Of a stretch of DNA of 64,000 bases, positions 5,450-60,245 are shown one piece after another; the stretch's first letter is position 1, and each line of letters begins with the position of its first letter. The stretch spans positions 38,440,001 to 38,504,000 of the forward strand of contig OX597834.1 of NCBI GenBank assembly GCA_951406725.2, written 5' to 3'. The DNA comes from Octopus vulgaris (taxonomy: Eukaryota). A program made the position numbers and the translations under genes. The notes beneath the pieces were generated by a model that saw only the letters and a list, made by a program, of their open reading frames with translations, made no database searches and was not told the origin of the DNA.

Positions 5450-5536
5450 AAGGTATGTAGAAAAATACAACATGGACAAGAACGTATAACTCTTAGAAGA
5501 CGATACAATAAACACGGACAGGACATTCGAAACCCT
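5450..5536 (-). mobile_element. Short (TA)n-embedded element, family H5 3' part
   Basis: Reverse complement matches 60170-60245 and 57088-57200; (TA)n on both sides. Confidence 0.7.
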
Positions 5537-5827
5537 ATATATATATATATATATATATATATATACATCCATATAATATATTATATATACACACACACAT
5601 GCATATATTTTGTGTGTGCGTGCGTGGTGTGTGTATGTGTGTGTTTGTGTGTGTGTGTGCGCGCGTATGAGCGTATTTGTGGATCCGAGTGTATGTCATG
5701 TATGTTTGTAATAATATATTTGTATATATCTCATCTTTATATAATTATATACACACAAGCTTATATATATATATAGAGAGAGAGAGATACACACAAACAC
5801 AGTGAAAGAGAGAGAGAGAGAGAGAGA

Positions 5828-5987
5828 GACGGGTTTGTTTCAGTTTCCGTCTACAAAATCCCCCCACAAGACATAGGTCGGCTCTGAGCTGTATTAGAAG
5901 AAGCTTGTTCCAGGTGACGCGCAGTGAGACTGAACCCTGAACTATGAGATCGGGAAGTAAACTTCTTACCACACAGCCACGCCTGCA
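5828..5987 (-). mobile_element. SINE family A, 5' half
   Basis: ttcagtttccgtctac...ttcttaccacacagccacgcctgc is the reverse complement of the A head. Confidence 0.8.
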
Positions 5988-6154
5988 TCTCTCTATATAT
6001 TCGGAAGTATTCCTTGCTGCCAATTTATTCCCTGACATACTTCCATGAGAAACAAAGTGTTTTTGGTTGGATTCAGTTTTTTAATAAACAGGCACACTCA
6101 CTCACATGCTTATATGACACTATATTAACTTTAACGTATTGTAATTCAATTCTC

Positions 6155-6350
6155 TACTGTTTTCATCCTTTCGGGATCGATGAAATAAAGTACCAGTTGA
6201 GTACTGATGTTGATGTCATCGATTAGCTGCTTTCCCCAGAATTTCGGACGTTCTGCCTATAGTAGAAAGAATTAGGCAAAATTACCAAAATATCATTGGT
6301 ACGGCGGTGAGCTAGAGGAATCGTTAGCTCGCCGGGGAAAATGCTTAGGG
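6155..6350 (+). mobile_element. SINE family B fragments (3' half followed by a head)
   Basis: tttcatcctttcgggatcgatgaaataaagtaccag; ggcggtgagctagaggaatcgttagc. Confidence 0.7.
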
Positions 6351-6357
6351 CCATGCT

Positions 6358-7042
6358 CTTACCAATTGTCGGAACATTCTAACCCATACATTTTGAACAA
6401 TTCCCGGTGTAATTACACTGCCACATTGTCATGGCGTTTTTGTACACCTTTTGGGCCAGGTACGAGCATCCACCTGCCGCAGATGATTTTCCACATAGTC
6501 ACCCCAAATGTAACACTGATATCTTAGCAATGCTACGCTTGATTTGAGTTGGTTCGTAAAGCTTCTTCTTGCGCAGCAAGAATCAGTCCTATATCCTTCT
6601 TTAAAAAAAACATGTCTTAACCATCTCCTTCATTCTTCATCAGATTCATCTGATGTTTGATGGAAAAACTTTCCGTTTAGGACTTTCTCTTCCAGTTGAT
6701 TTTTACTCCTCATATTATATGAAACCTGGTGGGTTTCCTAACTGTGACTGATTACCTTCTCACTCGGTGCAACCTGCCGTATTCTTTCATCACTATTTCT
6801 CATGCAAGGACTTGATCTCCTTCATGACACTATCCACTATTCCAACCAATCCTCTTCCAACTTCTTTCCCAAGCAAGTAAATCCCCGTTACGTTACTTCT
6901 GGTATGAGGGCACTCAAGCATAGCAATTATCTTCCTCGTTCTATTATCCATGTCGACCAGTTCTTTCTTTGTTCATTTCATAACGTACCGCACCTAAATC
7001 CCAAGCGTTGATGCCTTTAATCAGGTCCCAACATTTAGCTTG
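6358..7042 (-). mobile_element. R4/Dong-type non-LTR retrotransposon fragment (post-RT region to zinc knuckle), decayed
   Basis: Minus-strand pieces TKKELVDMDNRTRKIIAM, IYLLGKEVGRGLVGI, GLILAAQEEALRTN, GCSYLAQKVYK/RHDNVA match R4/Dong motifs; frameshifts and stops present. Confidence 0.8.
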
Positions 7043-7057
7043 AATCTACATAGCTTT

Positions 7058-7200
7058 TACTACTACTACTACTACTACTACTACTACTACTACTACTACT
7101 ACTACTACTACTATTGCTGCTGCTACTGCTGCTACTGCTACTGCTACTACTACTACTACTACTACTACTACTATTACTACTACTACTACTACTACTACTA
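7058..7200. repeat. (TAC)n microsatellite
   Basis: Directly visible. Confidence 0.95.
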
Positions 7201-56337: not shown

Positions 56338-56731
56338 GGCACAAGAGAGGCTGTGTGGTAAGAAGCTTCATGTGGTTCCGGGTTCAGTCCAACTGCGCGG
56401 CACCTTGGGCAAATTTCTTGTACTATAGCTTCGGGTCAATCAAAGCCTTGTGAGTGGATTTGGTAGACGGAAACTGAAAGAAGCCCGTCGTATATGTGTG
56501 TGTGTGTGTGTGTGTGTGTGTGTATGTATTTGTGTGACTGTTTTTGTCCTCCTCACCACCATCGCTTGACAACCGATGTTGGTGAGCTTACGTTTCCGTA
56601 ACTTAGTGGTTCGACTAGATACATCGATAGAATAAGTACTAGACTTACAAAGAATAAGTCCTGGGGGTCGATTTGTTCGACTAAAGGAAGTGCTCCAGCA
56701 TGGCCGCAGTCAAATGACTGAAACAAGTAAA
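56338..56731 (+). mobile_element. SINE family A
   Basis: Full head, body and tail. Confidence 0.9.
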
Positions 56732-57087
56732 ATAATAAACGAACAAAAGAAAACTAAATATTCTGTATGTACAAGACAACAACGACCCCGCTAGAAAATG
56801 GCAGACAAACACTCTTGCCGTGTCGTCTTTATAAAGGAAGTATACATTAGGTGAAGTACTCATCAAATACATTATATATGAAATTAAGACGAGTGGTCAC
56901 GGTTGGAATACCGTTTAGCATAGGTGTGGATCATATATACGTACACACACACAATATATATATATATTTACATATATATATATGCGTATATATATGTATA
57001 TTTATATGTATATATATATGTGTGTATATATGGGGATATATATATATATATATATATATATATATATATATATATATATATATATAT

Positions 57088-57309
57088 GAAATAAAATACA
57101 AAATGTGACAAGAACGCAAAACATCCGGACAACTAGGTGATATAAAAAAGGACAACCAAACATCCAGATAGACGAAACAAAAAAACAAGGACAGGTCATT
57201 CAAAGCCTTTTATCTTCAGTCAAGAACCGGATCATCCTCGCAATTTCGGCTGATTAATCTTGAGATTGCTCCAATCTGGCCAGCCCCAAGGAAAAACTAA
57301 GCTAAGAAC
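57088..57309 (-). mobile_element. (TA)n-embedded element, family H5
   Basis: Reverse complement highly similar to 60072-60245. Confidence 0.82.
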
Positions 57310-57528
57310 ATATATATATATATATGTAGTTCTGAAGGGAATCATTTCTATGTATCTAAATGCTTTCCGAAATAAGCATACGCTTCAGTTTAACAGCTAC
57401 GAGGAATCTATAAAATGTTGCACAAGCACTCAGCTCTGAGTGTACTGCTTCACTTAACAAAAACATCTGTAATCTAAAGTAACTCATGTTTTCTTCTCAT
57501 TTAACAATTAATATTCTTCTTTGCCAAA

Positions 57529-57722
57529 GGCGGCGAGCTGGCAGAATTGTCAGCACTCGGGGCAAAAGTGCTCAATAGCATTTCGCCCGTCTTTACGTTC
57601 TGAGTTCAAAATCCGCCGAGGTAGACTATTCCTTTCATCCTTTTGGCATCGATGACTAATGTAAATCGATTTACCCACTCTTCTAAAATTGCTGGCCTTG
57701 TGCTAAAATTTCATACCAATAT
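57529..57722 (+). mobile_element. SINE family B
   Basis: ggcggcgagctggcagaattg..ctttcatcctttt. Confidence 0.83.
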
Positions 57723-59364
57723 TATCTTTGTCCTCACTTAACAAGTCATTCTGAATCATATATATATACGTATGCTGAGTTCTAACAACTAGTTATTAGT
57801 ATCGCTGTCTACGCGAAATCCTATATATATATATATATATATATATATATTTATACATATATATATATATATATATATATATATATATATATATATATAT
57901 ATATATATGTATGTGTGTGTGTGTGTGCTTGTGTGTGTATATAATTGTACATATATATATATATATTGATACTTATATAGAGAGTGAGATAGATACATAT
58001 ATATGTGTGTATGTATATATTCCACAAGCTGCTTGTCTCTCTCCCCCTCTCTCTCTCTCTCTCCCTCTCCCTCCTTCTCTTTTTATATCTTCAGTATCAT
58101 CCTCTACTTTTCTAAATACCTGACCCTATATATCTCTCTTAAAACCGATCTCTCTCTTCCCTTGCTTTCCTTTCTGTCCCTTTGTTCTTGTACGCCATCA
58201 TCACTTTACACAAAATACGCCATATTGATTCCACAAGCAGATAGCTCTTAGTGACATAATCGGTTCCATCTTGCTTCAAACTAAGCACATACACACTCAG
58301 ACAGACACTTCACTTATACACACACACACGTGTGTGTGTGTGTGTGTGTGTGTGTGAACGATTGACAGAAAGAAAATGTACATGTGTCTACTAGTTAAAC
58401 GGTACAGTTGATATATCTGGTGCGTTTGAATGTCACCTTTACTGAACGAATAGCTATGCACACACTCACACACACACACACACGCACACGCACGCACACA
58501 CATATTCATAAATTCATACATACACATTACCACACATTGAGGAATATATATGTGCATGTGCGCGTGTGTGTACGTATGAGTGTGCATGTATGTATGTATG
58601 TATGTATGTATGTATATATATATATATATATATATATATATATATATATATATATATATATATATATATATATATCACTGTGTATATTTATATTTGTGTG
58701 TATATTATATGTGTATAAGTGTGTCTCCACAAATCGAGAGAGAGAGAGAGAGAGAGAGAGTGACTGAGAGACAAAAGATAGGTTGATATGAGTATGTGCG
58801 TACAGCGAGGTGCATCTACGACTGTGTCTGTATGTCGGTACGAGTGTGTGTATGTCTGTACAAGTGAGAGCATTTTTACGACTGGTAAAGATAGGCTAGC
58901 TGAAGTGTTAGTGCGTCTTAAAGTTCATGGAAAGTATTTTGACACCTGTTTGTAATCTAAATATATTAATTAAATTAATAATATGAAGTGTTGCTAATTG
59001 CTAGACTCGAAACTGTGAATAAGACGTCATCAAAGCTTTACTTCAATTGAATGCCACACACTCTCTTTACAATAAAGTTATCTATGAACTATTAGCATGG
59101 CTGACACTAGATTCCACTTCAAGTTCTTCTTGATGTTCTCCAATAATTGTCTGCGATTCAGCTTCCTCATAGTTTCTGTCAACCAAATTTCATTCCCAAG
59201 TGTTTCATCAACGAGTCTGTGTGAGAAAGCTCATGCTCGAAGTTCAACGTACTGAGATCAAATCCAAAACCACTTCGTTGGTAAACCATCGTCTTGACCA
59301 CACAGCTACTATTGCATCCAAAATAGATAAGAACACGTTCACTTATACGAGTGCCGGATGTAAA

Positions 59365-59820
59365 GCCCTTTGTAACTGGCTCAGAAAGTTGGCATTGTAC
59401 TCTTCTTTGATGGTGTGACCCTTTTGAAAATAATCAATAAGCACAATGCCCTTTGCATTCCAAAACCCTGAGTCTCTCACCTTCCCGTAAGATGAAACTA
59501 CCCAAGCCTTCTTTGGAGCAAGTGAGGAAGGGTGCTTCAACTGGATGTGTTGTCTCTTTGTGTTTGACACAAAGTAATGAATCCATCCAGGGTTAGGAAA
59601 CGTTCAAAGAAACCAGCTGGATGTACCTCTAACAATTTTCATGAAATGTAATCAGCATGGTATTCTATTGATCAGGTGTCATAAGATGTGGCACAATCCG
59701 AGTTCATTGTGCAGAATATGTGGCATCCACCGAGTTCATTGTGCAGAATGTTCCCAACTCTCTCGCGAACTATGCTAACAGCATTGGCTATTTGGTTTAT
59801 AGTCAATTGCCTGTCATCCA
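59365..59820 (-). mobile_element. mariner transposase fragment (pseudogene)
   Basis: MDDRQLTINQIANAVSI.RERV.NILHNELG and TKRQ..Q.KHPSS.APKK..FWNAKGIVLIDYFQKGHTI.EEY.ANFL. Confidence 0.9.
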
Positions 59821-60071
59821 TATATATATATCCGTGTCTATATGTATATGTATACATATACAAATATATATGTGTATATATATATATATATATATACATA
59901 TATATATATATATATATATAAATATTAGGGAATAAATCCAAACTTACAGGGAAAAATCAGATTTAGGATTGAATCCAATTTTATAGTAAAATATTATATT
60001 ATATTAAATTAGAGACAAAACCACTTTTTTTGTCTCTAATTTAATATAATATATATATATATATATATATA

Positions 60072-60245
60072 GCTTAGTTTTTCCTTGGGGTTGGCCGGAT
60101 CGGAGCGATCTCAAGATTAATCAGCCGAAATTGCGAGGATGATCCGGTTCTTGACTGAAGATTGAAGGCTTCGAATGTCCCGTCCGTGTTTTTTGTATCG
60201 TCTTCTAAATGTTTTACGTTCTTGTCCCACTTTGTATTTTTTACA
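60072..60245 (+). mobile_element. (TA)n-embedded element, family H5
   Basis: Matches 57088-57309 and 5450-5536. Confidence 0.82.

Follow-up and report, generated by a model that had tools for sequence, protein, structure and literature searches.

Across animals, minimal hammerhead ribozymes occur mostly as single motifs or as opposite-strand pairs 100-700 bp apart that probably represent truncated Penelope-like elements (PLEs), and, in the part of the survey drawn on here, are described as having low activity even as dimers (Cervera and de la Peña, 2014, PMC4209133). Related repeats include the tandem non-LTR (long terminal repeat) retrozymes of mussel (Cervera and de la Peña, 2020, PMC7229834) and tandem retrozymes tied to PLE ends in 35 animals, which comprise vertebrates, insects and one coral, with no molluscs in the available portion of that report (bioRxiv 10.64898/2026.07.22.740005); it has also been put forward that retrozymes may be viewed as PLE-dependent short interspersed elements (SINEs; PMC8969392, in the section used here). 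Among cephalopods, 235 hammerheads have been listed for the giant squid (PMC6962438, available part), and 31 recently active Penelope-like families have been described in Octopus vulgaris, in an account whose accessible text does not contain the word ribozyme (PMC13282606). The subject of the present analysis is a stretch of 64,000 nucleotides of the O. vulgaris genome (OX597834.1; C21:38440001-38504000 in a 2.8-Gb assembly of 227 contigs), referred to below as the window, in which nine hammerhead-like motifs are found in seven dispersed repeat families.

We regard it as probable that these motifs are type-I hammerheads located at the 3' ends of several PLE families, that five of the nine sites represent truncated, often inverted ends of elements bearing an open reading frame (ORF), and that one family, designated A, likely also moves as a SINE that borrows the PLE machinery. 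Dense single or inverted minimal hammerheads derived from truncated PLEs are already known across animals, and to these the window adds an octopod case with young Hydra-like families; what is plausibly new is the short, tRNA-headed version of family A. A search of the full-text literature found neither an account of PLE hammerheads in octopus nor one of a SINE that has a tRNA head and a PLE as its partner; its scope left aside most subscription journals, the resources Repbase, Dfam and SINEBase, and the supplements of PMC8557442, PMC4209133 and PMC13282606, whose family lists could hold these elements.

The window has a GC content of 37% and is rich in microsatellites. Motifs were sought with a descriptor consisting of C(U/C)GANGA, stem II, GAAA, a self-complementary stem III, UH and a stem I of at least 3 bp, and 100 local dinucleotide shuffles served as the null model. 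Hammerhead-like sequence is present at all nine coordinates at which a preliminary description of the window had placed a ribozyme core, while only six pass the descriptor (24031, 31541, 42511 and 42873 on the minus strand, 31412 and 31838 on the plus strand; shuffle mean 0.04, maximum 1), and three pass a stricter variant in which no unpaired base is allowed before GAAA. The remaining sites are damaged or variant family members: 14198 fails through a CG to TG change in stem III together with a damaged stem I, and 31099 through a stem II mismatch and a weak stem I, both being mutated members of families with an intact or nearly intact consensus, while 27521 has the core CUGUCGA, in which the A6U change is common to the whole of family B2. 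A tenth, degenerate copy (29424-29476) was absent from the earlier list. The motifs are predicted type-I minimal hammerheads, located about 60-140 nt from the fixed 3' end of each family, and the claim that their stem III is palindromic or loop-less stands, with self-duplexes of -1.7 to -9.7 kcal/mol and no hairpin in the monomer. No isolated motif folds better than its own shuffles (z -1.7 to +1.0), and a Rfam scan of the window gave no hammerhead family among the 150 of 404 matches listed, those being microsatellite-driven microRNA noise. Insofar as the published PLE hammerheads can be compared (PMC4209133, in part), the motifs share with them type I, a short stem I, an extra base after A9 and the palindromic stem III, and differ in the long stem II inserts of some families and in the family-wide A6U and U4C cores.

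Family consensuses retain the core, apart from A6U in B2 (39/42 copies) and a U4C change that is frequent in B (about half of copies) and in D. Such departures fit the proposal that the hammerheads are largely vestigial, with transposition independent of cleavage and variant cores free to spread, as do two published observations, each taken from part of its source: A6C and U4C cores have low activity (Perreault, 2011, PMC3088659, the main text of which does not contain 'A6U'), and Naiads lacking a hammerhead proliferate well (Craig et al., 2021, PMC8557442). We nevertheless hold this proposal to be unlikely. Within A, B2 and E, position N7 varies (in B2 it takes all four bases) and the rest of the core is conserved, a pattern suggestive of selection on the fold, and the stem sequences differ between families, yet all pair. 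Whichever the case, the family-wide A6U and U4C cores constitute natural tests of the need for cleavage; the A6U core at 27521-27556, with its freely varying N7, is a natural core variant found also at further loci (L423-L434). As judged from published PLEs, cleavage would be confined to dimers that pair through the palindromic stem III, whether the transcripts are tandem or intermolecular, and isolated stubs would likely be inert passengers.

Five sites (14198, 31412, 31541, 31838 and 42874) derive from protein-coding PLEs, of which they are the 3' ends, cut short and in many cases inverted. Extension in the 5' direction, which the preliminary description had recommended as a way to find PLE ORFs, revealed an ORF encoding reverse transcriptase (RT) plus a C-terminal GIY-YIG endonuclease upstream of the hammerhead end in families A, C, D and E, while the 24031, 27521, 31099 and 42512 types yielded none. 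Family C has at least 39 other copies at 98-99% identity; its sequence is common to loci up to the 1.5-kb edge of the inspected flank in 9/30 cases, ORF pieces of at least 200 aa are present in 7 of 14 extended loci, and one locus (L104), representing the parent type of 31541 and 31838, has an 835-aa stop-to-stop frame with the motifs DKT, RWA, YRDD, CxCX5C (CNCICASEC), YIG, CxxC (CQLC) and CxH (CIH). In family D, for which the search was made with the end of a second Hydra-like ORF and returned copies 98-99% identical, the hammerhead lies 1.3 kb downstream of the ORF end in 29/30 loci. A broken ORF of the same type is found upstream of family E, on the same strand, at two of 30 loci (L173 and L179), which have their untranslated region (UTR) in common at 81-89% identity.

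Families C, D and E are likely Hydra-clade-like PLEs: with this clade, as characterized in the consulted part of PMC8557442, they share DKT, an RWK-like motif, the CxCX5C linker, CxxC, CxH, a canonical hammerhead and (TA)n targets. An assignment as Neptune-like was dropped because the clade motifs fit Hydra. Differences from the clade exist as well, in that family C exceeds 4.5 kb and has a UTR of about 2 kb, compared with elements 'generally <3 kb' in that source, and in that the second Cys of the linker is replaced in 21/24 sampled copies of family D, the CxCX5C form being intact in three. The closest named relatives of one PLE protein from the genome are in Argonauta hians and Octopus sinensis.

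Inversions, tails and a (TA)n bias are among the PLE features treated by Craig et al. (2021, PMC8557442, in part), and the window copies display the same set. Firstly, 5' truncation with an adjacent inverted copy is observed, as for endonuclease-positive (EN+) PLEs; the 201-nt inverted repeat at 31503-31953, for example, is one insertion, in which a 5'-truncated end is paired with an inverted copy and one side carries a tail of 67 nt. Secondly, a 3' tail is present on one end only (about 36 nt in A, 65-75 nt in C, D and E). Thirdly, (TA)n adjoins the 3' end in 27/29 copies of C, 18/18 of D, 23/28 of E, and 28/29, 28/29 and 5/6 copies of the other three families concerned, against a background rate of 9.5%; the reported abutment on (TA)n, and insertion into AT microsatellites, therefore apply to six families and fail for family A (4/29). 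The preference for (TA)n goes with the CxCX5C-type linker: families that have the linker are inserted there, whereas the linker-less A is not and has ordinary target-site duplications (TSDs). By analogy with described PLEs, the GIY-YIG endonuclease would nick the target and the RT would copy the RNA from its 3' end, usually stopping early or switching and leaving an inverted piece, so that short hammerhead-bearing stubs would far outnumber full elements. Microsatellite targeting accounts for the local clustering and high density. At 31015-32019, three PLE families stand back to back, joined through shared (TA)n runs.

The preliminary description had interpreted the motifs as independent non-autonomous retrozyme families with a circular-RNA cycle, inserted by PLE enzymes. 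The minimal hammerheads are of the PLE type and PLE enzymes are the likely mobiliser, as it had supposed; the remainder of this interpretation is largely wrong and, as a general account, very improbable. The outcome that the preliminary description had itself named as a refutation, copies that are truncated ends of autonomous PLEs, holds for five of the nine sites, which go back to elements with an ORF; of the four sites with no linked ORF, two have long relatives. Retrozymes are defined by tandem units and circular RNA, and although the window copies resemble metazoan retrozymes in being short and non-coding, in containing a hammerhead and in their relationship to the terminal repeats of PLEs (both characterizations following the available parts of the retrozyme literature), none forms a head-to-tail array and all are single or inverted. 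What they show is the PLE pattern: element sequence flanks the cleavage site in both directions, 5' ends vary, pieces are inverted and a 3' tail is present. Nor does the description of the carriers as non-coding repeats of 100-500 bp extend beyond the window copies to their families, several of which bear ORFs. Where the retrozyme interpretation retains force is in the shortest types. Copies of the 24031 type are about 215 bp long and have a shared start, a dinucleotide repeat within 40 nt upstream in 26/29 and no ORF nearby, and C2 (42512) is short in 29 loci, remaining within about 130 nt upstream of the query as judged by eye; being short in all loci examined, both are candidates for non-autonomous families. 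The one true tandem hammerhead array found lies elsewhere in the genome (L231:2272-4548, G000:C1:20002272-20004548). In it a 359-bp unit with a near-canonical hammerhead is repeated five times head to tail, alongside two inverted units and a (TA)n end, a retrozyme-like tandem layout with PLE-type inversion.

The other types without a linked ORF are longer. For the 31099 type, shared sequence reaches the 1.5-kb edge at 11/30 loci and about 2.5 kb at three, by way of (CA)-rich sequence, and B2 (27521) runs on upstream in most of 11 loci; an apparent sharp 5' boundary of B2 was rejected, the query copy itself being truncated and other copies running on upstream. The few ORF matches near B, B2 and C2 copies are in separate elements, or the junction to the hammerhead end was not seen. 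Two candidate parents were also discarded: a PLE ORF (L411) for the 31099 type, from which it is separated by an inverted copy, and a Neptune-type ORF (L422) for C2, where unrelated sequence intervenes. The latter locus (G000:C7:110938829-110940700, minus strand) contains an open 624-aa Neptune-type PLE frame with DKG and a CX4CxxC linker. A long stretch rich in (TG)/(CA) comes after the frame, and the 3' end of the element was not found. Family B 3' fragments cut downstream of the hammerhead, inside (TA)n, at 29860-29946 (plus strand) and 46719-46795 (minus strand) are without the motif and fit random 5' truncation.

Several results pull against the interpretation of the motifs as PLE ends. 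Within 1.5-4 kb of flank, no linked ORF was found for 24031 (29 loci), 27521 (12), 31099 (36) or 42512 (34), so that these four types may be genuinely non-autonomous; the ORF link of family E comes from its two loci; the clade assignment of C, D and E was made by motifs rather than by a tree; Pfam gave no match to the 835-aa protein; and the family copy samples are top BLAST hits, not random copies.

Least ordinary among the features of the window is the tRNA-like head of family A (14056-14125), which the preliminary description had missed. At 26 of 29 other loci, found by means of an ORF piece, this head follows the PLE ORF stop within about 30 nt, and upstream of it in ORF-bearing loci are RT and endonuclease frames of the Penelope/Poseidon type, the endonuclease having C-x-C, two His and no Zn-finger linker. 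The inverted piece at 13596-13870 matches the family's own endonuclease (tblastn E 3e-20) and is 90% identical at the DNA level to a long copy (L130). In the head consensus, A and B boxes, defined by the box consensus given in PMC8969392 (in part), are 33 nt apart, within the 30-35 nt expected of a tRNA-derived SINE, and comparison with 30 sampled tRNAs of six isotypes placed it closest to the genome's own tRNA-Arg(TCG), with a score of 64 against a shuffle maximum of 42 and 49/75 columns identical.

The distribution of 5' ends argues that the head is also a starting point. When ends were mapped with the 3' part of family A only, so as to avoid query bias, and with the window copy, one inverted second match and one locus lacking a usable match excluded, 15 of 28 copies ended inside the element, 12 within -23 to +11 of the head and one further upstream; 12 of the 13 copies reaching the head therefore start there (P 1.7e-7 under a uniform truncation rate). 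Consistent with this is the coverage in 1.63 Mb of loci not chosen for family A, where the ORF end is represented once, the head 5-6 times and the hammerhead 12-15 times, and most family A copies are without an ORF. Exact TSDs of at least 7 bp flank 17/54 copies, compared with 0.7 expected (maximum 4), so the statement that no TSD is visible proved incorrect for this family; 5' inversions occur in 30/54. The consensus hammerhead region of A lacks a T4 run, while five of the six other families have one, and the 3' end of the short form is common to its autonomous partner, which is a PLE and not a long interspersed element (LINE). Taken together, these data make it likely that the 14198 family has a second mode of spread, as a short tRNA-SINE moved by a PLE. 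RNA polymerase III (Pol III) would start at the head and produce a non-coding RNA of about 275 nt that has the same 3' tail as the PLE and would be copied in trans by the PLE protein. A fuller account, to which we assign nearly even chances, is that A is a true tRNA-SINE with a Penelope/Poseidon partner in place of a LINE, that it carries its partner's hammerhead, and that capture of a fold-back copy of the SINE as the 3' end of a Penelope ORF gave rise to the ORF-bearing form, leaving SINE and retrotransposon with one shared Pol III-promoter/ribozyme module. The spacer between ORF stop and head (14040-14070 in the window; L112-L140 elsewhere) resembles the reverse complement of the head's first 17 or so nt, and hints at such a capture.

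A different explanation holds that all families, A included, are only truncated PLE ends, with no separate Pol III SINE, and that the pile-up of 5' ends in A reflects snap-back or stalling of the cDNA at the small palindrome at the tRNA start while the long PLE RNA is being copied, or a cut of that RNA by RNase P at the tRNA-like fold. A 5-bp hairpin does lie at the head junction and many copies fold back exactly there; the same head belongs to the ORF-bearing element, and long and short copies are similar in age, at about 89-94% identity to the window copy. However, starts at -2/+1 of the head are seen in non-inverted copies with TSDs too and explain the fold-backs just as well, the A and B boxes are intact at their 33-nt spacing, and a stall at a stable fold would be expected first at the 3' side of the head. 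We consider truncation alone rather doubtful, while acknowledging what tells against a Pol III SINE: ARAGORN, even when relaxed, does not call the head a tRNA, Rfam gave no match to it, several starts between -11 and -23 were classed on visual inspection as fold-backs mimicking the spacer, and a T4 run is present in 5/22 individual short copies. In three RNA-seq (RNA sequencing) runs of a related organism, searched with a family A reference copy that has a 3-nt gap at the cleavage site, A reads were equal on both strands, 67-72% ran into unlike flank, and no pile-up of starts or ends was seen; the same runs contained no family C reads and only roughly 90% relatives of D. These RNA results are neutral as to cleavage and Pol III transcription.

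Among known systems, family A shares with Penelope/Poseidon PLEs an endonuclease that has C-x-C and two His and is without a Zn-finger linker, as well as TSDs, 5' inversions and the lack of a (TA)n bias, and is unlike them in that the whole 3' UTR is a tRNA-headed module and in the dominance of ORF-less copies starting at the head. The schistosome Sm-alpha and Sj-alpha repeats, described as SINE-like hammerhead elements with a Pol III promoter (PMC6765202, in part), provide a second parallel, both they and family A being short non-coding repeats in which a Pol III-type promoter, predicted in the case of family A, precedes a hammerhead; in that account Sm-alpha and Sj-alpha are often tandem, have canonical active hammerheads and are named without a partner, whereas family A is dispersed, its hammerhead is of the minimal type, and its entire body is also found in an ORF-bearing PLE. 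At the level of description, the likely tRNA-derived family A also resembles the tRNA-derived octopus elements OK, OR1 and OR2, with the difference that OR2 is placed among the CORE-SINEs in the consulted part of PMC4758252. If family A is a SINE with a named Penelope partner, it would offer a model for the movement of Sm-alpha-type elements and a 275-nt substrate with which to address PLE trans-mobilisation and the relevance of the ribozyme. SINEs are normally described as parasites of LINEs, a rule that such a partnership would extend. The octopus SINEs OR1 and OR2 are of tRNA-Arg origin. Octopus tRNA-SINEs, including OK, OR1 and OR2, were reportedly described by Ohshima and Okada in 1994.

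The density of about one hammerhead per 7 kb first estimated holds locally (6-7 kb) and does not carry over to the genome. In a background sample of 60 evenly spaced 10-kb stretches (600 kb), the seven window families gave 38 BLAST matches, or about one per 16 kb; with 10 distinct copies, the window is about 2.5 times denser. Descriptor-passing motifs numbered 24 in 12 of the 60 stretches, or one per 25 kb (shuffles 0-1), and none was found in 40 kb beside the window; a rough linear extrapolation to 2.8 Gb gives about 1e5 such motifs, in an animal group of which no member is named in the examined part of the earlier survey (PMC4209133). The sample also contains at least five hammerhead families foreign to the window (L233, L235, L274, L279, L288), three of them as opposite-strand pairs. 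Coordinates of the window features are collected in Table 1.

Table 1. Hammerhead-bearing repeats and associated features of the window, in window coordinates.
Position	Strand	Family	Feature	Details
13596-13870	-	A	Inverted 5' piece	Broken GIY-YIG endonuclease remnant, Penelope/Poseidon-type PLE
13873-14055	+	A	ORF C-terminal end and short spacer	Stop near 14039
14056-14125	+	A	tRNA-Arg-like head	A box 14060-14070, B box 14103-14114, then (AAT)n
14198-14241	+	A	Predicted hammerhead, damaged copy	Element end 14322
23931-24141	-	B	Short element	Intact motif 24031-24065; no ORF found
27437-27584	-	B2	3' end	A6U variant core 27521-27556
29424-29476	-	B2-like	Degenerate hammerhead region	
31015-31230	+	B (31099 type)	3' end	U4C core, damaged stems; relatives run at least 2.5 kb upstream
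31290-31395	-	D	3' tail, joined to next piece	Young, likely Hydra-like PLE end
31399-31486	+	D	Inverted piece	Motif 31412-31449
31503-31752	-	C	Inverted piece	Motif 31541-31618
31753-32019	+	C	Main piece	Motif 31838-31915; young, likely Hydra-like PLE end
42378-42711	-	C2	Repeat copy	Motif 42511-42604; 73-74% like C 3' end; no ORF found
42773-42978	-	E	3' end	Motif 42873-42933; older, likely Hydra-like PLE end

Additional repeats are present in the window. An abundant repeat flanked by (TA)n, with copies in many other loci, is found at 5455-5534 and 57158-57304 on the minus strand and at 60069-60246 on the plus strand; near the outer positions 5450 and 60245 it shows CTGANGA, with a variable N, followed by GAAT instead of GAAA, gives no descriptor match, and may be the end of a further PLE whose ribozyme is non-canonical or dead. 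Hammerheads are absent from two other dispersed repeats of very high abundance, the first represented, for example, at 17867-18333, 29580-30717, 51093-51478 and 63370-63716, and the second at 15120-15375, 24514-24740 and 53807-54040; both presumably resemble known octopus tRNA-SINEs.

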